Shown: one piece after another, positions 271 through 60,447 of the stretch
Layout of the letters: each line of letters opens with the position of its first letter
Numbering within the stretch: position 1 is the stretch's first letter
Assembly (NCBI GenBank): GCA_963697135.1
Contig: CAVOMZ010000016.1
Location: 19,640 to 83,639, forward strand
Direction of reading: 5' to 3'
Length of the DNA stretch: 64,000 nt
From: an uncultured Chloroflexia bacterium
GTDB taxonomy: Bacteria; Chloroflexota; Limnocylindria; Limnocylindrales; CSP1-4
The notes under the pieces: generated by a model
What the model was told of the DNA's origin: nothing
The model's database searches: none
Seen by the model: only the letters and a program-made list of their open reading frames with translations
Position numbers and translations under genes: made by a program

Positions 271-458
271 GAGCGCAGAAAGCAACTTGTTCTCCTCTTT
301 ATGATCGTTTGTTTTCAATCCAACCTCTCTTCATCCCACGACTGGGCGTTGTGAGCGCCTGGGGATTTGAGAAGAGCTTATGGGACAGATTGTTGCTACG
401 AAGTAAAGGCGGCCGAATGCTACTAACAAAGCCGTCTAAGCGGCTCCCTCTTCTTGCG

Positions 459-798
459 AGGAGGGCAGGAGGCTTCACCACACCCGTGAGCCGATGAAAT
501 TGTCTGCCACACAGTGCAGTTTCAGAAGGAGGGCGGGAGAACTCCACCCCCCGGCCCCTCCTCGCCCGGCGAGGAGGGGTGCTGAGACGCCGTCGGCGCG
601 GCAGCCAGATTGCGAGGTCTCTGACAACCCAGGCCGCACCGACCCTCCTTGCCGGGCGAGGAGGGCGAGTCTCGACGGTCTCTCGTGATTCAGAGGGTGG
701 AGTTTCTCGTGACGACGCCCTGTCGTTCGACTTGAAGCAGGACGAGCACTGTCCCTTATCGCAAAAGGGCTCGCTGGTCCTTATTTTTCATGGGAGAA
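459..798 (-). repeat. family B hairpin-rich element, copy 1 (about 340 bp; strand is relative to copy 2)
   Basis: Homologous over its full length to the reverse complement of 17264-17610. Contains a nested family C module (539-705) with two CCCTCCTCGCC-CGG-GGCGAGGAGGG hairpins (555-579, 643-665). Confidence 0.8.
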
Positions 799-862
799 GA
801 AGCCCTGCACAAAGCGTAAGTTTGGGCTTACAATGAGCCGAAACTGAGGAGGAGGATTACAA

Positions 863-1294
863 ATGGCGGTTTTCAGCGCGGAGACAACGATCCAGAAGTC
901 GCCGGACGAGGTGTTTGCTTACGTATCCGACATGGCGCGGCACGGCGAGTGGGGCGGACACGAGCTGGCGGTTGAGAAGACGTCCAGCGGCCCGGTAGCT
1001 ATGGGTTCCACGTTCTCGAGCGTGGCGAAGCAGTTCGGTACCCAGAAAGAGACTCAGACCGTGACGGAGTTTGTGCCGGGCAAGCGCTTCGCCTTCGAGG
1101 CGACGGGAGCCCTGGGTGTTGCTCGACACGTGTTCGACCTGTCGCCGTCTGGTACGGGTACGCGCGTGACCAAGTCGATGGAGATTATCAAGCCGACGGT
1201 CCTGGCCAAGGTTACGAGCTTCAAGATCAAAGGCGAGCAGCCCAAGTCGATGGCACAGGACCTGCAGAACATCAAGGCAAAGCTCGAAGGCTGA
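863..1294 (+). CDS. SRPBCC (polyketide cyclase/dehydrase-like) family protein
   Basis: 143-aa ORF. GAGGAGGAGG Shine-Dalgarno lies 6 nt upstream of the ATG. The length and sequence pattern (SPDEVFAYVSD...GEW) are typical of the SRPBCC fold. Confidence 0.65.
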   Translation: MAVFSAETTIQKSPDEVFAYVSDMARHGEWGGHELAVEKTSSGPVAMGSTFSSVAKQFGTQKETQTVTEFVPGKRFAFEATGALGVARHVFDLSPSGTGTRVTKSMEIIKPTVLAKVTSFKIKGEQPKSMAQDLQNIKAKLEG

Positions 1295-6178: not shown

Positions 6179-6256
6179 GACGCACGAGCCGTCGAGAAAG
6201 CAACAGCGTTGCCTCACTCGACGATGCTGCCTCCCGTCGAAGTACAACGAGCGCGA

Positions 6257-6470
6257 CTCTTCCCCTAACCCCTTCTCCCTGCGGGGAGACGGGGACTACT
6301 GCTTCGCGAGTACAACCCAACGCTCTAAGCGGGCGCTGGTCTATCGCTCCAAACAACAAGCTGCAGACTCAATGCACCGCTCCCAGTCCCTTTCTACAAA
6401 GGATGGTGATCGGCCGCCGTTACGGGACCTGTTCCCGTCTCCCCGCAGGGAGAAGGGGTTAGGGGAAGAG
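6257..6470. repeat. MITE-like unit with perfect 37-bp terminal inverted repeats (family D hairpins)
   Basis: 6257-6293 (CTCTTCCCCTAACCCCTTCTCCCTGCGGGGAGACGGG) is the exact reverse complement of 6434-6470. The arms flank 140 bp of non-coding sequence. Confidence 0.7.
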
Positions 6471-6540
6471 GTTGCCCCGCGAGGCGTTAGAATAGGCGCC
6501 GGCCCGCCAGAGTCCGCTCGATAGGTTGAGGAGACTACAG

Positions 6541-12492: not shown

Positions 12493-12673
12493 GAACTCCA
12501 CCCTGGCTTTGCCATCCCTCCTCGCCCGGCGAGGAGGGCGACGACAGGGGTAGTCTGGCAGAAACGAGCTTCCGTACAATCTGAGTAAGAGCAAACGAAG
12601 CAGATAGAGAGACCTCCGGCTGATGCTCAGGTGACCCTCCTCGCCGGGCGAGGAGGGGTTAGGGGTGGAGTTC
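12493..12673. repeat. family C module: two CCCTCCTCGCC hairpins bracketed by 11-bp inverted repeats
   Basis: GAACTCCACCC (12493-12503) is the reverse complement of GGGTGGAGTTC (12663-12673). Internal hairpins at 12516-12538 and 12635-12657. The same architecture is nested in family B copies (539-705; about 17347-17508). Confidence 0.7.
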
Positions 12674-13488: not shown

Positions 13489-13662
13489 GTGATCGAGTCC
13501 TCGAGTGCTAGACCCGCCCCCCCTTGTTTACATAGCCATTATTGAGGATAAGAGGATAGCCTTCGGGCTTGCAAGCTGAAGGCTGCTTTCTGCTACGGCT
13601 TCGCCATAGGGGAGCTCGCGAAACGGGGCTGAGGTACGGAGACAACGCTCCTTGCGGGCTCC

Positions 13663-14160
13663 CATGAAATGGAGTTGAAGATGGAGCCGGTTTTGCCGCG
13701 GTGCGCTATCGCGACCTTCCGCCCCCACCCTCTTATCGTAAGAGGGACCTGAGGGCACATCCCTCAGACTCCTTGCCAAAGGGGGCTGCGCCGCCCTGGA
13801 CTCCCTGCCGGAGAATTTCATCGCGTCCGGGAAGAACGGTCAGGCCGGGCGTTGGCGTCGTTCTCTGCGCCACATTTTCATTCGCTCGTGGTGTGGCGAA
13901 GCCTCATGTCCTTCCTCCCATGAAAATGGAGTTGAAGATGGAGCCGGTTTTGCCGCGGTGCGCTATCGCGACCCTCCGCCCCCACCCTCTTTAAATAAGC
14001 GGGAGTCTGAGGGCACATCCCTCGGACTCCTTGCTCCTTCGACCTGGCTCAGGACAGGGGCCAGGGCTGCGCCCCTCTGGGACTCCCTGTCTGAGCCTTG
14101 GCATCGCTCTCTGTGCTCACATTTTCATCGGCCCAGGGTGTGGCGAAGCCCCATGCGCTG
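13663..14160 (+). repeat. family A element array (2 units, period 256 bp)
   Basis: Units start at 13663 and 13919 with CATGAAA(A)TGGAGTTGAAG. Each has the core GCCGCGGTGCGCTATCGCGACC, CCGCCCCC, a variable hairpin, and the conserved hairpin CTGAGGGCACATCCCTC(A/G)G (13749-13767, 14007-14025). Confidence 0.85.
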
Positions 14161-14272
14161 CGGGGGCTTCGATCTCTTCGCTGTTTTGCGCGCAACCCTC
14201 TCTCTCCCTGGGGGAGAGGACTTTGATTCGTCTTCTTATCGGACGACTTTGGCTTCCAAAATGCCTCCTTCG

Positions 14273-15440: not shown

Positions 15441-15468
15441 GTAGCTGCCCAGCATGCTGGGCAGCTAC
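15441..15468. repeat. family J perfect 28-nt palindrome GTAGCTGCCCAGCATGCTGGGCAGCTAC
   Basis: The sequence is its own reverse complement. It lies 104 nt downstream of the Rieske gene stop. A related copy is at 25098-25125, with weaker ones near 27331 and 35896. Confidence 0.8.
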
Positions 15469-15571: not shown

Positions 15572-17020
15572 TCAGCCGCCGAGGCAGCCGTCGAAGGTCC
15601 GAAAGTCCTTGCTACGCGCCGCGGGCACCGCGACCGGCACCTTTACGCCGAGTAGCCGCTGCACCATGGGGTCGTCCTCGGTGCCGAGGATGCGCCAGTC
15701 TTCGCCGGGGGCGAGGATTTTCTCGGCGGAGCGAATCGTGCTGAAGGGCAGCGATGGGTCGGTGGCGGGCGGCTCGATGCCCTTGGCGAGGTCCTTCGCG
15801 GCTTTGATCAGGATGGCGCGCAGCTTGATGATCGATTTGTCGGTGGTGCCGAGGTGCTCCTGCGAGCGGTCCCAGATCGGGCCGGCGGACTCGGTGACCA
15901 TGCAGTCCTGGCTGACGAAGTTGTCGATGCCGGTGTAGAGCGTCGTCTTCTGGCGCTCGCGGTCGATCTGGTAGTCGTTCTGGGCACGCCAATCGCGCGG
16001 GCGTTCGCCGCTCATCGCCAGGGCGTTGGTCGCGGGAGCAGGCTGGCCGGGTCTGGCGCCCAGCCCGCCGGCGCCGAAGTAGGGGTAGTTGGCAGGGAAG
16101 CTGGGACCGCCGAGGGAGCCCATGCGCCATTCGTTGCTCTGCTGCATCGGCTTCATCGACGTGGTTGCGAAGTTCCACCGCCAGCAGTTCTCGTCGTCGA
16201 TCGGCACGAAGAGGCCGCTGTTGGTGCCGAAGGGCACGGACGAGACCACGGTGGTGTAAGGGATGCAGAAGGCGCTGATGCGGGCGTGGGTGTGGCCGTT
16301 GGGCGTTGTGCGCATGCCGGCGTACTTGTAGCCGTACCAGGTGTCCTGCACTTCGAGATGCGGGGCGCGGTCGTGGGCCCAGAACTTCCAGGACATGGCG
16401 TTAGTGGGGTAGCCGGGCTGGTCCGAGCCGTCGTCCGGCGTGTCCAGAATGCCGAAGTACTGATGCAGCCAGGAGATGTGGGCGGAATCCATGTTGCCTT
16501 CCATGGACTGGACCCAATTGCAGTTGGAGAACATCTTGGCGGCGCGCTGCTCCTCCGGCGGCACGGTCTCGGTGCCGAAGTCGCGGAAGCCGGTCATCGT
16601 CTCCTGCGGACCCATGTAGGTCCAGATGACGCCGCCGGACTCGTGCGTAGGGTAGGCGCCGACGCGGACTTTGGACTTGAAGTTGCTTTCGGCGGGCTCC
16701 GACGGCATGTCGACGCAGGCGCCGGCGACATCGAACTTCCAGCCGTGGTAGACGCAGCGCAGGCCGCTCTCTTCGTTGCGGCCGAAGAACATCGAGGCGC
16801 CTCGATGCGGGCAGGCGTTGGCGAACAAGCCGACCTGGCCGTCCGTGTCGCGGAAGGCGATGAGGTCTTCGCCGAGCAGTCGCACGCGCACCGGCGGGCT
16901 TTCGGGCTCCGCGACCTCCGTCGAGAGCAAGGCGGGCGTCCAGTAGCGACGCAGCAGGTTGCCCATGAGCGTGCCTGGACCGACGCGGCAGAGGATGTCG
17001 TTGTCTTCTTTAGTCAGCAT
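15572..17020 (-). CDS. Rieske [2Fe-2S] aromatic ring-hydroxylating/demethylating oxygenase, alpha subunit
   Basis: 482 aa. Rieske motif CPHRGASMFFGRNEESGLRCVYHGWKF; mononuclear iron motif NWVQSMEGNMDSAHISWLH. Confidence 0.85.
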   Translation of the reverse strand: MLTKEDNDILCRVGPGTLMGNLLRRYWTPALLSTEVAEPESPPVRVRLLGEDLIAFRDTDGQVGLFANACPHRGASMFFGRNEESGLRCVYHGWKFDVAGACVDMPSEPAESNFKSKVRVGAYPTHESGGVIWTYMGPQETMTGFRDFGTETVPPEEQRAAKMFSNCNWVQSMEGNMDSAHISWLHQYFGILDTPDDGSDQPGYPTNAMSWKFWAHDRAPHLEVQDTWYGYKYAGMRTTPNGHTHARISAFCIPYTTVVSSVPFGTNSGLFVPIDDENCWRWNFATTSMKPMQQSNEWRMGSLGGPSFPANYPYFGAGGLGARPGQPAPATNALAMSGERPRDWRAQNDYQIDRERQKTTLYTGIDNFVSQDCMVTESAGPIWDRSQEHLGTTDKSIIKLRAILIKAAKDLAKGIEPPATDPSLPFSTIRSAEKILAPGEDWRILGTEDDPMVQRLLGVKVPVAVPAARSKDFRTFDGCLGG

Positions 17021-17263
17021 GGTTGGTTACCCTCGGCAGAGCTGCCACTCGATCTGTATCGAGCGTATTTCCAGCGAGCGTACAACGGAGGTGGTGCGTC
17101 GTCCACTTTGGAAGGGGGCGCCTGGGCCGAACTACGGCACGGCTCTCGCGGGAGATGGACGGTTGTGGTCAGGCTGCTTGAGCGCTTGCCTCACCCCAAC
17201 TCCTGTCTCCTTCGACAAGCTCAGCGCATGCTTCCGAGGAGAGGGACTCTCGTGGAGGCTTGG

Positions 17264-17610
17264 CCATCAAGGACCAGCGAGTCCTTTTGCGAGAAGGAAC
17301 ATTGCTCGTCCTGCTTCAAGTCGGACGACAGGGCATCGCCGCGAGAGAAACTCCACCCCGCGTCTCTGAATCACGATCGACCATCAAAACTCGCCCTCCT
17401 CGCCCGGCAAGGAGGGTCAGGGTTGCCTTGGGTTGTTAGAGACCGTGCGACCTGGCTGATGCGCCAACGGCGTCTGAGCTCCACTCGTCGCCGGGGGTTG
17501 AGTCCTCCCGCTCTCCTTCTGAGGCTGCACTGTGTGGCCGGCATTTCATTGGCTCAGCGGTGTGGCGAAGCCTCTCCCTTCCTCGGAGGGAGAGGGGTCA
17601 GGGAGTGAGG
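17264..17610 (+). repeat. family B hairpin-rich element, copy 2
   Basis: Reverse-complement homolog of 459-798. It ends with GGCATTTCATTGGCTCAGCGGTGTGGCGAAGCCTCTCCCTTCCTC (17540-17584), the same 3' module as family A units, followed by a family D hairpin (17571-17610). Confidence 0.8.
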
Positions 17611-17713
17611 TCATCCCCACCCGCTAACCCATCCCTGCGCGAGGACTGGTATCGCGACCGGCACCGCGATACGATGCGGGCGCTAAGAGCAGCTAAATAG
17701 AGAGGGGATCGCG

Positions 17714-18349
17714 ATGATCTACGAGATGCGCACCTACACCATCCAGCCGGCAAAGGTCCCGGCCTGGGAAGAGAACTTCATGGAGGCCTATAACAGCGGC
17801 CGCGCCAACTACTCCAAGTTGGGCGGACTCTGGCACACGGAGCTTGGCCCGCTGAACCAGGTGATCCACATCTGGCCCTACGAGAGCCTGCAGCACCGGG
17901 CCGACGTGCGTGCAAAGGCCTCCAAGGAGCTGGCCGGCAAGTGGCCGCCTTCGTTGTCCGCTACCCTCGTGACGGCGCAGGAGACCGACATCCTGGACCC
18001 GGTTAAGGGCATGAAGGATTGGGACGGCGAGCCGAAGGCATGGGGCGAGGTCTACGAGCTTCGCACTTACACCTACGCTCCCGGCGATGCCGCCAAGGCC
18101 GCGGCGGCCTTCGGTGAGGCGCTGGCGGGACGAGACGCTATCGCGCCGGTCGCGGGTATGTTCGTTACGGGCCAGGCAGGCAACCTCAATAAGCTGCAGC
18201 AGCTCTTCGCTTACAAGAGCTGGGACCATCGCGAAGAGGTCCGCGCCGAGTTCCGCAAGCAGGGCGTATGGCCACCCCACGCGGAAGTGCGCCCAATCAA
18301 CCAGCTCGTCCGCTTCCTGATCCCGGCTAAGGGTTCTCCCATCCACTAG
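17714..18349 (+). CDS. NIPSNAP family protein (two NIPSNAP domains)
   Basis: 211 aa. MIYEMRTYTI... and a second YELRTYTY... repeat, each followed by a HIW/WDHRE-type pattern. Confidence 0.8.
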   Translation: MIYEMRTYTIQPAKVPAWEENFMEAYNSGRANYSKLGGLWHTELGPLNQVIHIWPYESLQHRADVRAKASKELAGKWPPSLSATLVTAQETDILDPVKGMKDWDGEPKAWGEVYELRTYTYAPGDAAKAAAAFGEALAGRDAIAPVAGMFVTGQAGNLNKLQQLFAYKSWDHREEVRAEFRKQGVWPPHAEVRPINQLVRFLIPAKGSPIH

Positions 18350-18571: not shown

Positions 18572-18692
18572 GTAGGAGCCCGTTCGAGAACGGCTCCGCG
18601 CTCATCGGCAGGCCCCTAGATGTGATGTCGCTGTCAGCCTGCATCCACCCCGGCCCCACCCCGATCAAGCCTAAAGGCATGCAGCTACATCG
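18572..18692. repeat. family G module (left copy)
   Basis: Starts with GTAGGAGCCCGTTCGAGAACGGCTCCGC (18572-18599), which is exactly the reverse complement of 20289-20316. The rest is homologous to the reverse complement of 20195-20288. Confidence 0.75.
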
Positions 18693-21032: not shown

Positions 21033-21127
21033 CTCGCCTCTCAGGGATATCCCAGGCGTTGGATGTTGGCCACGGGATTAACACCGGATTATCACGGGAT
21101 TTGGATTGAGTTTTGATCCTAGTCTGC

Positions 21128-21567
21128 CATGAAAATGGATTTCTCCCATCGAAAAACAACGCGTGGAGAATGACGCCCGCTTTGCTGCACGGCGCTGTCG
21201 CGACGTTCCGCCCCCACCCCCTTAAATAAAACGGGATCTGAGGGCACATCCCTCAGACTCCTTGCCAGCTGGGCTGCGCCCCTCTGGACTCCCTGCCAGA
21301 GAATTTTCATCCGCTCACGGGTGTGGCGAAGCCTCATCCCTTCCTCCCATGAAAAATGGATTTCTCCCATCGAAAAACAACGCGTGGAGAATGACGCCCG
21401 CTTTGCTGCACGGCGCTGTCGCGACGCTCCGCCCCCACCCCCTTAAATAAAACGGGGTCTGAGGGCACATCCCTCAGACTCCTTGCCAGCTGGGCTGCGC
21501 CCCTCTGGACTCCCTGCCAGAGAATTGTCATCCGCTCACGGGTGTGGCGAAGCCTCATCCCTTCCTC
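21128..21567 (+). repeat. family A element array (2 head-to-tail units, period 220 bp, about 98% identical)
   Basis: Units start at 21128 and 21348 (CATGAAAA(A)TGGATTTCTCCC). Conserved hairpins at 21238-21256 and 21459-21477. Each unit ends ...GGTGTGGCGAAGCCTCATCCCTTCCTC. Confidence 0.9.
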
Positions 21568-21607
21568 AGAAGAATCTCGTGAAAATCGTGTGTTAATCCC
21601 GTGGCTA

Positions 21608-21937
21608 CTATCGGGCTGCAGCGTTGGGACCGACTCCGGGCGGGGCGGGACCCTCGAAGCGGCCGATGCCGAGGGCCTGCTGGACGTTCCACTCGTAGAT
21701 CTCGCTGACGTCGCGGAGGCCGGCTTTGACCCAGGGGTGCTCGGCGACGAGGGCTCTGGCGGCGTCCATGTTGGCTGCGCGGAGGACCCAGATGCCGACG
21801 CCCTGCTGGGTGGGGCCGCTGAACAGGACGTTGCCGTTGTCGTGGTTCTCTTTCATCCACGCGAGGTTCTGATTCTCGATACCTCGGATCGCCTCGCGCG
21901 GGCCGATTGACTTGCTCATGACTACAAACCAGGCCAT
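21608..21937 (-). CDS. YciI-like protein
   Basis: 109 aa. The size and pattern (GNVLFSGPT...GVGIWVLRAANMDAARALVAEHPW) resemble the YCII domain. Confidence 0.6.
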   Translation of the reverse strand: MAWFVVMSKSIGPREAIRGIENQNLAWMKENHDNGNVLFSGPTQQGVGIWVLRAANMDAARALVAEHPWVKAGLRDVSEIYEWNVQQALGIGRFEGPAPPGVGPNAAAR

Positions 21938-22019
21938 TCATTCCTCCTCATGCTGCGTTAAGGTGCTCCAGCCCACATTGCCAGATTTCGCTTCACATCG
22001 CTATCGTGCTGCTCCGCCC

Positions 22020-22105
22020 TCACTCCCGGTTTAAGAGAAGGAGTCTGAGGGCACATCCCTCAGACTCCTTGGCAGAGTGGGCCCAGCGGCCCCTCTGCAC
22101 TCCCT
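22020..22105 (+). repeat. family A fragment (5'-truncated)
   Basis: Contains GGAGTCTGAGGGCACATCCCTCAGACTCC (hairpin 22045-22063) and the downstream block ...GGCCCCTCTGCACTCCCTGC. The GCTGCRCGGCGCT core is missing. Confidence 0.7.
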
Positions 22106-22117
22106 GCTGGCTGGCCG

Positions 22118-22690
22118 CCAATGTGGCTGCATGCCCTTAGGGTTGCGCGGGGCTGGGTGGCGCGGATGCTGCCGGTGAGCCGAAGCGCATGTCGGGGTTG
22201 GGCAGTGCGGTGTCTTGCTGCAATGGCTTGAGTGGAGGAGGTACGTGGCGCCCTCACCCTGGCCCTCTCCCCTGAGGGGGCGAGGGGATCTGTGCGCCGG
22301 ATCTCGGTTGGAGAATAGGCCATCGCCAATTGACGCCCAACGTGGCTGCTTGCCTTTAGGCTTGCGCGGGGTTGGGGGCGCGGATGCGGCCGGTGAGCCG
22401 AAGCGCCTGTCGGGGTTGAGCAGTGCGGTGTCCGTAGATTCGGACGTGTGCCCTCACCCTGGCCCTCTCCCCTGAGGGGGCGAGGGGATTTGTGCGCCGG
22501 ATCTCGGTTGGAGAATAGGCTATCGCCAATTGACGCCCAACGTGGCTGCTGCCTTTAGGCTTGCGCGGGGTGGGTGGCGCGGATGCGGCCGGTGAGCCGA
22601 AGCGCCTGTCGGGGTTGGGCAGTGCGGTGTCCGTAGATTCGGACGTGTGCCCTCACCCTGGCCCTCTCCCCTGAGGGGCGAGGGGATCTG
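22118..22690 (+). repeat. family E tandem repeat (3 units of about 200 bp)
   Basis: Units begin at 22118, 22326 and 22526 (CCAAT(TGACGCCCAAC)GTGGCTGC...). Each contains a family D hairpin GCCCTCACCCTGGCCCTCTCCCCTGAGGGG(G)CGAGGGGA (22250-22288, 22450-22488, 22649-22686). Confidence 0.85.
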
Positions 22691-22891
22691 CTTGGGTGGC
22701 TGATGAGCGTTTGTTGGCGAAGAGCGCGGAGTTGGCTTGAAGAGCGGACTCCACCTGGCCGCCGACCGCTGGTTCCCCTTGTCGAGCCCTCTCCATTGCA
22801 ATAATGGAGAGGGTTGGGGTGAAGCAAGCCCCGACGCTTTCAGCCTTATCAACGCGTCCGTTGGAGCCGTTCCCGGACAGGCTCCTACGGC

Positions 22892-23257
22892 GGGACAAGC
22901 CAGGGGCCTTCGCGGAGATGTGACTACGATGGTCGGTTGCACCCACCCGGCCCCCTCGGGCGCGATGAATCGGGCCCCTACGGCGAGTTGTTGCACGCGA
23001 CGGAACTTTTGAATCGTGTGGCAGCCGGGATACCGTGGCCGTCGGGGAGATGTGACTACGATGGTCGGTTGCACCCACCCGGCCCCCTCGGGCGCGATGA
23101 ATCGGGCCCCTACGGCGAGTTGTTGCACGCGACGGAACTTCTGAATCGTGTGGCAGCCGGGACAAGCCAGGGGCCTTCGCGGAGATGTGACTACGATGGT
23201 CGGTTGCACCCACCCGGCCCCCTCGGGCGCGATGAATCGGGCCCCTACGGCGAGCTG
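22892..23257 (+). repeat. family F tandem repeat (3 units of about 132-135 bp) abutting the NHL gene stop
   Basis: GAGATGTGACTACGATGGTCGGTTGCACCCACCCGGCCCCCTCGGGCGCGATGAATCGGGCCCCTACGGCGAG starts at 22915, 23047 and 23182. Units 1 and 2 are followed by diverged copies of the last 13 codons of the NHL gene. Confidence 0.85.
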
Positions 23258-24253
23258 CTACACACGGCGGAACTTCTGGATGGTGTGGCAGCCGGGGCGG
23301 AAGATGCCGCCTTCGTAGGAGGTCTTGCTGACTTCGCCGACGTAGATGTCGCCCCGGCTATCGACCCAGATGCCGTGGGGTGACGTGAGGTTGCCGGCGA
23401 TGCAGGGGTCTTCTTTGGGCGGCGCGCCGAAGCGGGAGATCAGCTTGCCGTTCATGTCGCGAATAGTCATGTGGGCCGGCCGCTCGTCGGGCCAGGCAAA
23501 GCCGGCGATGGATACGAGGCCGGGCTGCCAGTACATCTGACCGATGAAGACTTTCTCATCCTTGTCGATGAACAAGTCGCCGGGGCGCTGGACGTTTTCC
23601 CAGCAGTCGAGGAACTGGCCTTCAGGTCCGAAGATCTGGATGCGGTCGTTCTCGCGGTCGCAGACGAAGACGCGGCCGTCCGTGTGCACCCAGACGCTGT
23701 GCGGCAGCATGAACTGGCCGTGCTCCTTGCCGGGGCCGCCCCAGGACTGGAGCAGCTCTCCCGAGGCGGAGAAGCGGTGGATACGAGCGTTGCCATAGCC
23801 GTCGGAGACGTAGCGCTCGCCGTTGGGGGCGACCGAGAGGCGCGTCGGGCGGTTGAAGGGCCCGGCGCCGCGCTCGATGGTTAGCAGGTTGGCGTGCTGG
23901 CGAGTGGCGCTGTAACCGGTGTCGGAGGGCAAGTTGGGTGTGCCGAGGGTCTCCAGAAGCTCGCCTTCGAGGGTGAATTTGCGCACCGTGTGGTCGCCGT
24001 CGTCGGCGAGATAGAGGATGTCGTTGTGGATGGTGATGCCGTGGGGGCGGGTGAAGACGCCTTCGCCCCAGGACTTGATGTAGCTGCCGTCGCGGTTATA
24101 GACGAGCAGCGGGTGTTCGCCGCGGTTGAAGACGTAGGCGCGGTCTTGCGAATCTGTCGCGACGCCGGCGACGTCGCCGTGGCTCCAGCCGTTGGGGATC
24201 TGCTCCCAGTCTGGTACAAGCTCGTATCGGAAGTTGCCCTGGCCTAGCGGCAT
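23258..24253 (-). CDS. NHL-repeat beta-propeller protein (peptidyl-alpha-hydroxyglycine lyase-like)
   Basis: 331 aa. Repeated NHL-type blades (...VCDRENDRIQIFGPEG..., ...HTIQKF...) with GD/DG-rich turns. Confidence 0.65.
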   Translation of the reverse strand: MPLGQGNFRYELVPDWEQIPNGWSHGDVAGVATDSQDRAYVFNRGEHPLLVYNRDGSYIKSWGEGVFTRPHGITIHNDILYLADDGDHTVRKFTLEGELLETLGTPNLPSDTGYSATRQHANLLTIERGAGPFNRPTRLSVAPNGERYVSDGYGNARIHRFSASGELLQSWGGPGKEHGQFMLPHSVWVHTDGRVFVCDRENDRIQIFGPEGQFLDCWENVQRPGDLFIDKDEKVFIGQMYWQPGLVSIAGFAWPDERPAHMTIRDMNGKLISRFGAPPKEDPCIAGNLTSPHGIWVDSRGDIYVGEVSKTSYEGGIFRPGCHTIQKFRRV

Positions 24254-24365: not shown

Positions 24366-24724
24366 GCCTCACCCCAACGCCTCTCCGTGCGCGGAGAGGG
24401 GCTTTAGCGCGCTCGCTTCGCGAGCGGCGGCCTCGGCGATTGAAAGCTCCTCGGCTTCGAATGCGAATTCTCGTCCTTACAGGGCCGGGTTTCATCAATT
24501 CCCCGAAGCTTCGAAGGGTTCCGCGGCAACTTTGAGTGCAGCACTAACTGTGGATTGATGCAGGAGAATTTCGAAAAGCCGGGTGGCCACGTCAGCGGAT
24601 TGCAACCCCGGCCTGGAAAGACGGGCATGAGCAGTTCTTGGCGAAGCTGTTCGCTATAGTCCCGCTGCTCGCGAAGCTACGGCTCCAAAGCTCCTCTCCG
24701 CGCACGAAGGGGTTGGGATGAGGC
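24366..24724. repeat. pair of inverted family D hairpins flanking about 290 bp
   Basis: GCCTCACCCCAACGCCTCTCCGTGCGCGGAGAGGGGC (24366-24402) is an imperfect inverse of GCTCCTCTCCGCGCACGAAGGGGTTGGGATGAGGC (24690-24724). Confidence 0.55.
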
Positions 24725-24807
24725 AACACGCTTCCTGCCTCGATGCGCGTTCGCCGTGCCCGCCTGCCCTCACCGCCGCCTGTGTGTCCACGAGACTTGG
24801 TTGCGCT

Positions 24808-25097: not shown

Positions 25098-25125
25098 GTA
25101 GCGGCCCAGCATGCTGGGCCGCTAC
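25098..25125. terminator. family J perfect 28-nt palindrome GTAGCGGCCCAGCATGCTGGGCCGCTAC downstream of the TPP enzyme gene
   Basis: The sequence is its own reverse complement. It sits 26 nt after the stop at 25151. On the minus strand it is followed by TTCGTTCTGTC. It differs from the 15441 copy by a paired T/A to G/C change. Confidence 0.5.
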
Positions 25126-27180: not shown

Positions 27181-27543
27181 GTTCGGATTGGGTATTGTGG
27201 CGGACGAACTCTTCATTAGCGCTCAACCTAAGAGCACTACCGATACGGTCGCGCGGTAACGGCTCGAGCTCTTCTCTCTTCGCGGGGCCGCACGTCACTG
27301 CAGCGTTGGCCGTTATAGCGGCACCGGCCTCTGCCCAGCTTGCTGGGCAGCTACAGGCTGGATGTGCTTAATTCGCCGCCTGGCCGCCACCTGCCTGACT
27401 GACTTGGGCCATTGCCAGCGCGGTTGCGTGGTACATCGGCGGGTGGCCCTGAGGGGTAGCAGGGCGGGCGAGGCAGCCCTATACTCTGCTTGCTTTCTCA
27501 AACCCCGACCAAAATCGGCGAAGCCGGACCGAAAGGACGAATC

Positions 27544-28526: not shown

Positions 28527-28636
28527 GACGATGAGGCCAAACACCCACCGATGCCCTCGGTCGCTGACGGGCGCTGTGGGGACGGCAGTTGGTCAGCCGT
28601 GGCCTGGATTCTTCGCCGGGCGGGCGCCGCTCCTCC

Positions 28637-28850
28637 CATGAAAATGGATTTCTCCCATCGAAAAACAACGCGTGGAGAATGACGCCCGCTTTGCTGCACG
28701 GCGCTGTCGCGACGTTCCGCCCCCCCTTAAATAAAGCGGGATCTGAGGGCACATCCCTCAGACTGCTTGCCAGCTGGGCTGCGCCCCTCTGGACTCCCTG
28801 CCAGAGAATTTTCATCCGCTCACGGTGTGGCGAAGCCTCATCCCTTCCTC
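28637..28850 (+). repeat. family A element, single unit
   Basis: Near-identical to the 21128 units, apart from a few substitutions and 1-nt indels. Conserved hairpin at 28743-28761. Confidence 0.9.
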
Positions 28851-28934
28851 AGAATGGCAAACGGGTGACGATTGCGGGCTGGTCGTTGTCCGTTTGCCTA
28901 CCCCCTCCCCTGCTCTCTAGCGCAGGTTGCGCGA

Positions 28935-32356: not shown

Positions 32357-32580
32357 TTAGCCCCGTGCCGTACTAAACCAGAGGCTGTAAAGCTCGCTGA
32401 ATACAGCCATGGAGGTTCTACCGAATCGTTGTTGAAGAAGATGGGCGACGGCTCAGCTGAGCAGATGTCCTTAGCAATTGTGCCACGAAGCGGCGCTTAG
32501 CCGCGAAGGATCGCTGTTACGGGAGCATCACGACTTGGCTAGAGTTGAGTCGATGGACCTTGTCCTGGCTGGCGTAACCA

Positions 32581-33226
32581 GGGCTCCGACGCAGGAGCCG
32601 GCTTTGCTGCGCGGCGCTATCGCGACGCTCCGCCCCCGCCCCCATTGGGGATGGGAGGTCTGAGGGCACATCCCTCAGACTCCTTGGCAAAGGGCTAGTC
32701 GCCCTCTGCACTTCCGAAGGAATGAAGGCGTAAGCGAAATGGCAAAACTGAGTGCGCGTCTTATGGGCATTCGCACGTCGAATTCTGGGGGCGCGAGTCC
32801 GGTGTGCGAGGGCTCCGACGCAGGAGCCGGCTTTGCTGCGCGGCGCTGTCGCGATGCTCCGCCCCCGCCCCCATTGGGGATGGGAGGTCTGAGGGCACAT
32901 CCCTCAGACTCCTTGGCAAAGGGCTAGTCGCGCTCTGCACTTCCGAACGAATGAAAGACGTAAGCGAAATGGCAAAATTGAATGCGCGTCTTAGTGGCAT
33001 TCGTCCGTCGAATTCTGGGGCGTGAGTCTGGTGTACGAAGGCTCCGACGCAGGAGCCGGCTTTGCTGTGCGGCGCTATCGCGACGCTCCGCCCCCACCTC
33101 CATTGGGAATGGGAGGTCTGAGGGCACATCCCTCAGACTCCTTGGCATAGGGCTAGTCGCCCTCTGCACTTCCGGCTTGGAGAATTTCATTGCCTCAGGG
33201 TGGGCGAAGCTTCATCCCTTCCTCTC
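32581..33226 (+). repeat. family A-related array (3 units, period about 229 bp, mosaic 3' ends)
   Basis: Units start at 32581, 32810 and 33040 (GGGCTCCGACGCAGGAGCCGGCTTTGCTGCGCGGCGCT...). Conserved hairpins at 32660-32678, 32889-32907 and 33118-33136. Only unit 3 ends with the ...GAGAATTTCATTGCCTCAGGGTGGGCGAAGCTTCATCCCTTCCTC module. Confidence 0.85.
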
Positions 33227-33688
33227 AAAGATACGGGAAGTGGAGCCAGAGCCCTGTCATTGCTAGTGCACTGGTGCGAGCCAAGCGGAAGCAATCCAAC
33301 GGGGTGCATCCACACATCCCTTTTGCTTCGCCCACGCCATTCCCTCAGCGTCAGCCGGCGCGGCATCGTTCGTCCATCAGACAAAACGCCTGCATCATCA
33401 TCTCCGAGGTGCGAGCGCCCGGCCTCGCGCTTTCGCGCAACGACGCTTCGTGCGTCTGCCGCCGAGGGAGCGTGGCCGATTTCGAGAGCGCCTGGCACGA
33501 CACACGCGGCTGCCCGAGGTTGCTTCGCTTGCGCTCGCAAAGACAAACCACACGGAGAGAGCAGGGGTAGGCAGTCCTCGACCGTCCAGCACCTCTGCGA
33601 ACGAGCTGTCGATCCGCCTCGGAGTGCATATTCTCCTCCGCGGAACGGGACTTGCGCCGTCGAGATTGGGCTGGGCTCAATTCCCGGG

Positions 33689-60068: not shown

Positions 60069-60124
60069 ATCACCTGTCATGGTTGTTGATTAGCTAGCAA
60101 CACGGGGCTGTCTGGAGAGAGAAT

Positions 60125-60275
60125 CGGCTGGGCAAATGGATGCCCGCTTTGCTGCGCGGCGCTATCGCGACGGTCCGCCCCCATCCCTTGAAAACAAATA
60201 ACCCGGGGGACACCGCCTGGAACTCCGGCAGAGAGTGGCTTCGCTTGCGCCGCTCTCTGCACTCTTTGCATGGCA
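60125..60275 (+). repeat. degenerate family A-like element
   Basis: It keeps the core GCCCGCTTTGCTGCGCGGCGCTATCGCGACGGTCCGCCCCC but lacks the GAGGGCACATCCCTC hairpin. Confidence 0.6.
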
Positions 60276-60447
60276 TTCTTTCAGATGTCTCTAAGAGCGA
60301 GACTTGAATCACCAAGGACCATAAGGGTTTGAAAGAGCGAGTCGAGTAAGCGGGCTTTGCGTCCGTATATCGCCTCAGGTGGTGAGCACCGGCACCGCGG
60401 CATTATTGAGCAGCTGCAACTCGTCCAGGGCCCACCGCGGCGTCTCG

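Follow-up and report, generated by a model that had tools for sequence, protein, structure and literature searches.

The window analyzed in this study, a 64-kb stretch of contig CAVOMZ010000016.1 (assembly GCA_963697135.1) of an uncultured Chloroflexia bacterium, contains two inverted copies of a hairpin-rich element, designated family A. This element is probably a lineage-specific, recently inserted, non-coding and non-autonomous mosaic interspersed repeat of the kind represented by repetitive extragenic palindromes (REP), bacterial interspersed mosaic elements (BIME) and REP doublets forming hairpins (REPIN). A comparison with related contigs indicated that the element was copied into two unrelated divergent intergenic regions after the split from the nearest sampled relatives. 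Its head (plus the 3' motif in copy 1) is that of a second, more abundant family, B, which includes head-to-tail arrays. The element is tiled from modules that also occur separately elsewhere in the window. All statements on copy number cover the 64-kb window.

A blastn search with positions 400-860 as the query against the window aligned copy 1 (446-782, plus strand) with 17596-17269 at 79.2% identity over 346 columns (E 1.1e-82), and the MAFFT alignments A1 and A2 were consistent with this pairing. An earlier note on this DNA, made from the letters alone, had reported an inverted full-length duplicate; the duplicate is real, but the coordinates given there (459-798 / 17264-17610) were slightly off. 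Every identical run listed in that note was found in both copies. On the 3' side, the clear homology ends at 782 / 17269. Its 5' limit is 446 / 17598; should the first hairpin be resident DNA, this limit would move to ~466-473 / 17570. The best-conserved stretch is formed by the 3' 78 nt (705-782 vs 17269-17346), with 90% identity. A 16-nt block completes the palindrome 556-578 in copy 1 and is missing from copy 2; further indels between the copies are 1, 2 and 6 nt long. Both copies are located in divergent intergenic regions:

446-782, plus strand: copy 1 (A1) of the composite repeat, with limits set by its similarity to copy 2; its neighbours are a minus-strand gene for a small Cys-rich protein (start at ~290) and the SRPBCC gene 863-1294 (plus strand).
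17269-17598, minus strand: copy 2 (A2), inverted relative to copy 1 and flanked by the Rieske oxygenase gene 15572-17020 (minus strand) and the NIPSNAP gene 17714-18349 (plus strand).

The indels put the open reading frames (ORFs) of the two copies out of register, in agreement with the claim that no ORF is conserved between them. The GC content at the three codon positions of the element is 0.62/0.71/0.69, which is not coding-like; real genes in this region have a third-position GC content of 0.8-0.9. These two observations allow us to conclude that the element is non-coding, and a small protein gene was ruled out on the same grounds. A concatenated six-frame translation of both copies gave no match in the protein collection at E up to 10. 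An assembly artefact can be ruled out for copy 2, as its first 209 nt are found at the same locus in L025, an independently made Logan assembly of run ERR11563127 with 98.3% identity over 2,090 nt. The Logan contig ends inside copy 2, just before the palindrome 17394-17416, which is typical assembler behaviour at multi-copy sequence.

From 5' to 3', copy 1 consists of a CT/GA-rich hairpin, a head module (H), a short unique segment, a nested REPIN-like doublet, a two-hairpin tail and the motif TTTTCATGGGAG, the last being found in copy 1 only. These modules and the related stand-alone doublet are as follows:

446-465, plus strand: 5' hairpin CCCTCTTC-TTGC-GAGGAGGG; relatives have a resident hairpin that is orthologous to the copy 2 equivalent, 17571-17595.
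466-520, plus strand: head module H with the core GAGGCTTCACCACACC at 469-484, common to the 5' ends of B-family units in the same relative orientation.
539-705, plus strand: nested REPIN-like inverted doublet with the heads GAACTCCACCC (539-549) and GGGTGGAGTTT (695-705) around two 23-nt palindromes.
556-578, no strand assigned: palindrome CCCTCCTCGCCCGGCGAGGAGGG with an 11-bp stem; the 5' arm is absent from copy 2 (16-nt indel).
643-665, no strand assigned: second palindrome CCCTCCTTGCCGGGCGAGGAGGG, identical in copy 2 (17394-17416).
706-782, plus strand: tail module with the hairpins 711-727 (GACGAC/GTCGTT) and 739-781 (AGGACGAGC...GCTCGCTGGTCCT, inner CCCTT/AAGGG), 90% identical between the copies.
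783-796, plus strand: 3' motif ATTTTTCATGGGAG directly after copy 1, containing the motif TTTTCATGGGAG that ends B-family units.
12493-12673, no strand assigned: stand-alone doublet with the ends GAACTCCACCC and GGGTGGAGTTC; both palindromes (12516-12538, 12635-12657) are kept, and the spacer is unrelated to that of the element.

The 16-mer of the head core (GAGGCTTCGCCACACC) has seven matches in the window vs 1.1 expected, namely the two A copies and five B units, and positions 451-510 match the 5' ends of the B family in the same relative orientation (blastn; alignment A4). Similarly, the motif TTTTCATGGGAG has six matches vs 0.15 expected, and the five outside copy 1 are all at the 3' ends of B units. 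Thus, A and B share the 5' head and, in copy 1, the 3' end, and differ in their interiors. The motif and the T-run are not present after copy 2, and the combination of the hairpin with ATTTTTCATGGGAG scores as terminator-like in copy 1 only. Within the window, the tail 706-782 is confined to the two copies.

The doublet in the centre of the element has inverted heads of 11 nt each (GAACTCCACCC / GGGTGGAGTT) around the two 23-nt palindromes. Its counterpart in copy 2 (17348-17505) has an incomplete first palindrome. The 23-nt palindrome CCCTCCTCGCCNGGCGAGGAGGG occurs in five copies in the window vs 0 expected (556-578, 643-665, 12516-12538, 12635-12657 and 17394-17416), with 11-bp stems that are perfect or contain one G:T pair. 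The spacers of the doublets 539-705 and 12493-12673 are 64-96 nt long. In the minimum-energy fold of copy 1 as a single sequence, the two palindromes pair together, as REPIN arms would. A long-range stem (537-549 / 695-708) enclosing two hairpins, which had been described earlier, is present; its strands GAGAACTCCACCC / GGGTGGAGTTTCTC are the terminal inverted repeats (TIRs) of the nested doublet.

The outer ends of the element are of a different type. These ends (CCCTCTTCTTGC... / ...CTCGCTGGTCCTT) have no TIRs, which were found on the nested doublet only. No target-site duplication (TSD) was found at the outer ends, where copy 1 is flanked by GCGGCT / ATTTTT and copy 2 by CCCTGA / GATGGC, nor at the doublets. 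A shared flanking tetranucleotide is not evident unless the 5' boundary is set at GAGG|CTTC: with the element starting at CTTCGCCACACC (CTTCGCC), GAGG stands before the two A copies and before four B heads out of five. The 5' boundary itself is ambiguous, since either the first hairpin (~74% alignment identity between the copies) belongs to the element or both insertions occurred beside a common type of CT/GA-rich hairpin. The orthology of its copy 2 counterpart to the resident hairpin of relatives suggests that this hairpin may be an insertion target rather than a part of the element.

The window is chromosomal (it contains ffh, rimM and many genes of the aromatic-catabolism type), and its nearest named relatives are metagenome-assembled genomes of Dehalococcoidia. 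All five related contigs examined at the orthologous intergenic regions (L014 and L023 for copy 2; L020, L024 and L021 for copy 1) were without the respective copy. In L014, which has an 85% identical Rieske protein with NIPSNAP next to it, the spacer at the copy 2 locus measures 382 nt and contains a REP-like doublet GCGACCTCACC...GGTGAGGTCGC but not the element. L023, whose NIPSNAP protein belongs to the same 90% cluster (DNA 84% identical), also lacks copy 2; it retains 99 nt next to NIPSNAP together with the resident head and hairpin, followed by unrelated sequence at the position of the copy 2 head. The window spacer without 17269-17570 is 391 nt long and aligns end to end with the 382 nt of L014. 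Since this deletion restores an L014-like spacer, copy 2 behaves as a clean insertion of ~300 nt, which lies within a resident doublet and immediately 3' of one of the resident hairpins. The copy 2 body begins directly after the resident unit (CTTCGCCACACC at 17570). The resident features are the following:

17571-17612, minus strand: resident REP-like unit at the copy 2 locus, consisting of the head GACCTCACTCCC (17601-17612) and the hairpin CCTCTCCCT...AGGGAGAGG (17571-17595), orthologous to the unit in L014 and L023.
17188-17242, minus strand: right half of the resident doublet enclosing copy 2, with an imperfect hairpin (17206-17242) and the head complement GGGGTGAGGC (17188-17197); compare the L014 doublet.

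Copy 1 was likewise missing from three contigs: L020 and L024, which encode an SRPBCC protein with at least 90% identity, and L021, which is syntenic. Their homology to the window starts only at 811-817, and the sequence upstream is unrelated. This start lies inside a promoter-like site:

806-834, plus strand: promoter-like site TGCACA-17-TACAAT, downstream of copy 1 and ahead of the SRPBCC start codon.

For this reason, copy 1 is probably located upstream of the SRPBCC gene's own predicted promoter and not in its 5' untranslated region (UTR). The synteny with L021 and L024 (SRPBCC, cupin, phosphoribosyltransferase, nitroreductase) stops at ~811. An FMN-dependent dehydrogenase gene is located upstream of the SRPBCC gene in L021 and L024; in its place, the window contains a divergently transcribed gene for a small, Cys-rich, secreted-looking protein. 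Therefore, copy 1 marks a rearrangement, i.e., a synteny breakpoint. We rejected a 5' UTR riboswitch or a cis-regulatory leader on the grounds that the SRPBCC, NIPSNAP and Rieske orthologues are not accompanied by the element. The more distant Rieske relatives L017 and L018 were not syntenic and had no repeats in common with the window.

Ten cores of the B family were found in the window, some of them in head-to-tail arrays. These include two units 257 nt apart at 13.6-14.2 kb, two units of 221 nt at 21.1-21.6 kb and three units of 229 nt at 32.5-33.3 kb; single or partial units were found at 22.0, 28.7 and 60.2 kb. The head module on a B unit is exemplified by the following feature:

21294-21353, minus strand: head module H on a B unit; four more, likewise on the minus strand, were found at 13872-13931, 14119-14159, 21515-21574 and 28799-28850.

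At all four informative loci, the orientation of B is that of the flanking genes, and the units are located 23-194 nt upstream of the start codon. The B-family spans (13640-14165, 21125-21574, 21960-22125, 28625-28860, 32550-33255 and 60100-60330) all have the minus-strand orientation. Each unit is built from an invariant hairpin TCTGAGGG-ATGTG-CCCTCAGA, a variable hairpin and a block GGGGGCGGA..GTCGCGATAGCGCC..GCAGCAAAGC. No Rfam match was found for the B family. A 40-nt inverted repeat (83% complementary, GGCCACGGGATTAACAC...) at 21062-21101 / 21573-21612 brackets the two-unit array, which is therefore located, like copy 2, inside another inverted doublet.

The folding of the element was analyzed on both strands. 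RNAalifold predicted for the two copies 91 pairs with -103.95 kcal/mol and 2 double-sided changes on the plus strand, and 100 pairs with -102.72 kcal/mol and 4 double-sided changes on the reverse strand. The plus-strand double-sided changes (2/91 pairs) are at alignment columns 319/335 and at columns 9/24 of the 5' hairpin; ~12 other changes in plus-strand stems are one-sided and G:U-compatible. The covariation between the copies was not significant, the observed level being reached by 130 of 500 column shuffles. The z-scores of the single-sequence folds were -4.75 for the plus strand and -5.46 for the minus strand, that is, the strands are equally foldable. A strand-neutral stem count (G:T vs A:C) showed no bias, with 24:22 in copy 1 and 8:15 in copy 2. 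The foldability of the element is thus that of DNA palindromes and inverted repeats, equal on either strand.

These controls bear on one of the two readings proposed in the earlier note, that of a structured RNA. The C:G to T:A double change cited there (CCCTT/AAGGG vs TCCTT/AAGGA) was confirmed at columns 319/335. The stem GACGAC/GTCGTT, which corresponds to GGCGAT/GTCGTC in copy 2, does carry three one-sided changes, all G:U-compatible on this strand, but the strand argument built on it is limited to one 6-bp stem and is gone in the strand-neutral count. The evidence for an RNA did not withstand the shuffling and strand controls. The suggested Rfam check with a cmscan-type search was carried out on both strands of the whole window and gave 0 matches at the gathering threshold, with none around either repeat type, and no known family was thus found there. 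In a sub-threshold search of positions 300-900 with E up to 10 allowed, the best match had E 0.7 and was spurious. ARAGORN found no tRNA or tmRNA genes in the window. As a caution for similar cases, hairpins with a few compensatory changes between two repeat copies are expected of palindromic DNA repeats and should not be taken for RNA covariation.

Genes for mobility functions and further copies were also searched for. Among the 40 window proteins scanned with Pfam, there was no transposase, REP-associated tyrosine transposase (RAYT), Y1 transposase, TnpA, TnpB, IscB, reverse transcriptase or integrase. A scan of genome contigs with the 19-mer GACTTGAAGCAGGACGAGC gave 13 matches, all of 19-22 nt and occurring by chance. 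A metagenome scan with GGCTTCRCCACACC-N15-45-CACAGTGCAG gave one match, which is attributed to chance because it lies within a coding region. Viral contig scans, a distant blastn search against plasmids and phages, and a literature search on diagnostic sequence strings gave no match. On architecture alone, we discounted an integron attC site, a retron and a CRISPR array; no integrase, reverse transcriptase or cas gene is located nearby.

The earlier note had offered, as the other possibility, a mobile element recognised as single-stranded DNA. The repeat side of this proposal is borne out by the modules found separately and by the absence of the element at both orthologous loci. Recognition as single-stranded DNA is plausible, but we infer it only, because no transposase was seen among the scanned window proteins. 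The mechanism of movement that we infer is as follows. A and B would be non-autonomous cassettes on whose shared ends the same machinery acts, probably a single-strand (HUH-type) transposase or nuclease provided in trans, of the RAYT, IS200/IS605 or rolling-circle kind. The machinery would probably favour sites next to or within REP-like hairpin doublets that are already present. The compensatory changes would reflect selection or gene conversion keeping the palindromes foldable, and not a specific RNA tertiary structure. HUH-type processing in trans is the best fit because of the shared asymmetric ends, the lack of TIRs and TSDs, the hairpins near the ends, the head-to-tail B arrays and the insertion beside hairpins.

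Several points weigh against the interpretation as a mosaic repeat. Only two full copies are known in the 64-kb window, and none of its 40 Pfam-scanned proteins is a transposase, RAYT, TnpB or IscB. The outer ends are without TIRs or TSDs and, except with the boundary GAGG|CTTC, without an evident shared flanking tetranucleotide. The exact 16-nt head core amid a more variable background could be a functional RNA or a protein-binding site, and pairing in the hairpins is kept through the few changes observed. The co-orientation of B with genes at four of the four informative loci would also fit a function at the level of transcription. In addition, the absence of the element in relatives could in principle be due to loss rather than gain.

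Some of these points are accommodated by the view that A and B are multi-copy small-RNA genes or RNA cassettes that differ in their structured bodies but have the same 5' head and a U-rich 3' end; the element would then act as a structured RNA of ~330 nt on the copy 1 strand. We consider this unlikely. The exactly conserved head core agrees with it, as do the terminator-like hairpin with a T-run at the end of copy 1, the co-orientation of B with genes at the four informative loci and the variable hairpin between invariant blocks in B. Hairpins are also kept through 2 double-sided and ~12 one-sided, G:U-compatible changes, and one 6-bp stem requires G:U on this strand only. However, the covariation is within the range of the shuffles (130/500), the opposite strand folds equally well with 4 double-sided changes, and there is no G:T vs A:C strand bias. 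The T-run is missing after copy 2, no promoter-like site was found in or before the element, and its centre is a nested palindromic doublet that is also found alone. The element is absent at the relatives' orthologous loci and has no Rfam match, and ten B cores per 64 kb would be an implausible density of RNA genes. A further reading, which seems quite improbable, regards A and B as a modular family of RNA cassettes in Dehalococcoidia-like bacteria: the common 5' head (GAGGCTTCGCCACACC...) and 3' end (UUUUCAUGGGAG) would enclose structured bodies that can be exchanged and that are transcribed together with adjacent genes. If true, such RNAs might act as guides or scaffolds for an unlinked effector, or might form a new class of regulatory RNAs that are present in many copies, singly and in tandem arrays.

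A passive origin, with segmental duplication, gene conversion or template switching between REP-like hairpins and with modules that are recombination debris made by no dedicated machinery, is not likely either. It agrees with outer ends lacking TIRs and TSDs, with the absence of a transposase among the scanned window proteins, with copy 2 abutting a resident hairpin and with the shuffled combinations of modules. It also agrees with the position of copy 1 at a synteny breakpoint, where relatives have an FMN-dependent dehydrogenase upstream of SRPBCC and the window has a different gene. On the other hand, the boundaries of similarity are sharp and no flanking gene sequence was co-duplicated, the junctions in the head-to-tail B arrays are precise, and the same head and 3' motif bound many independent units at no fewer than five loci (at least 5), which points to defined ends. 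We regard as very improbable a non-autonomous IS200/IS605-type derivative, i.e., a palindrome-associated transposable element (PATE), whose right end would encode an omega/reRNA-like scaffold serving, in trans, a TnpB or IscB nuclease from another part of the genome. Such a derivative would fit the lack of TIRs and TSDs, the presence of a hairpin near either end (446-465 and 739-781), the strong conservation of a 3' domain that stops exactly at the similarity boundary, and GAGG before both A copies and 4/5 B heads (with the start at CTTCGCC). Against it, the scanned window proteins include no TnpA, TnpB or IscB, and neither HEARO nor another Rfam model matched. Moreover, the left flanks have no common target motif at the boundary 446 / 17598, the head has no convincing sub-terminal hairpin, and the centre is an unrelated nested doublet.

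The interest of the element, taken as a mosaic intergenic repeat, is chiefly local. It shows how densely repeats are layered in this genome of an uncultured bacterium of the Chloroflexota type, in the form of nested doublets, shared-end cassettes and tandem arrays. Because such repeats are found next to promoters and at a synteny breakpoint, they may cause rearrangements and interrupt assemblies. Something new could come of one feature only, the head and tail common to two otherwise unrelated cassettes, which could lead to the machinery recognising these ends.

Intra-window repeats cover ~5.6 kb of the 64 kb (8.7%). Two more REPIN-like doublets (6253-6473 and 24368-24726) consist of a C-rich head and a CCTCTCC...GGAGAGG palindrome in inverted arrangement, with spacers of 134 and 231 nt, and palindromes of this type were also found in the related contigs L014, L018 and L021. 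Relatives also contain palindromes of the type CCCTCTCC...GGAGAGGG. Perfect 28-nt palindromes GTAGCNGCCCAGCATGCTGGGCNGCTAC at 15441-15468 and 25098-25125 (partial at 27331-27350) carry the GTAG/CTAC of canonical REPs and are a candidate for a separate true REP/RAYT system in this genome. Two tandem non-coding arrays, 22118-22690 (three units of ~200 nt) and 22891-23296 (three units of 132-135 nt), are located in the same 1.3-kb intergenic region, and a motif GAGATGTGACTACG..GCACCCACCC recurs at 18617, 20364, 20473 and 25005. Many intergenic regions are 400-1,300 nt long, which is unusually loose packing for a segment of a bacterial chromosome.

A comparison with known systems began with the large structured non-coding RNAs in Rfam (HEARO/omega RNA, OLE, GOLLD, ROOL and raiA). 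The element resembles them in its length of ~330 nt, its many hairpins and its intergenic location. Unlike them, it has no model match at the gathering threshold or at E up to 10, is equally stable on both strands, is not conserved at orthologous loci and shares modules with other repeats. Elements of the IS200/IS605 and PATE type and rolling-circle elements of the IS91/ISCR type have asymmetric ends without TIRs or TSDs, hairpins near the ends and insertion beside a short conserved sequence or hairpin. The asymmetric ends and near-end hairpins of the element are similar, and head-to-tail multimers, as seen for B, are possible in such systems; however, no transposase was found in the window, and the head has no clear sub-terminal hairpin.

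Miniature inverted-repeat transposable elements (MITEs) such as Correia/NEMIS, ERIC/IRU and RUP are non-coding, intergenic, 100-350 nt long, contain long hairpins and are often nested and often located beside promoters. The element is likewise a small, foldable, non-coding interspersed repeat of intergenic regions, nested and adjacent to a promoter. Classical MITEs are characterized by TIRs and TSDs; in the element, in contrast, TIRs are on the inner doublet only, and no duplication was found at any boundary.

REP and REPIN sequences occur in more than 100 copies per genome together with a cognate RAYT gene flanked by REPs. The closest resemblance in organization concerns such REP/BIME/REPIN systems with RAYT. 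REPs are short extragenic palindromes that form a stem-loop, 30-40 nt long and imperfect in E. coli; TnpA-REP requires GTAG 5' of the hairpin foot, and a link of REP to IS200/IS605 has been drawn (PMC3333891). REPINs and BIMEs are defined in PMC3116915, PMC3337134 and PMC2817692. Similarly, the element contains extragenic GC-rich palindromes, which form inverted pairs around a spacer (539-705 and 12493-12673; similar pairs are at 6253-6473, 24368-24726 and in L014) and are combined with other short motifs into mosaics. There is no target-site duplication, complementary changes keep the pairing, and related families are vertically present in relatives with a lineage-specific sequence. Nevertheless, the palindromes of the element are 23 nt long and perfect or nearly so, as opposed to the imperfect 30-40 nt of REPs, and are adjoined by neither GTAG nor CTAC, their heads being C-rich 11-mers (GAACTCCACCC). 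The doublet spacers here range from 64 to ~230 nt, the whole A element is far larger, with ~190 nt of non-palindromic head and tail, and the 40 scanned window proteins do not include RAYT. The absence of GTAG and the shorter, near-perfect palindromes therefore lead us to describe the element as one that works like REP/BIME/REPIN systems, rather than to assign it to that family.

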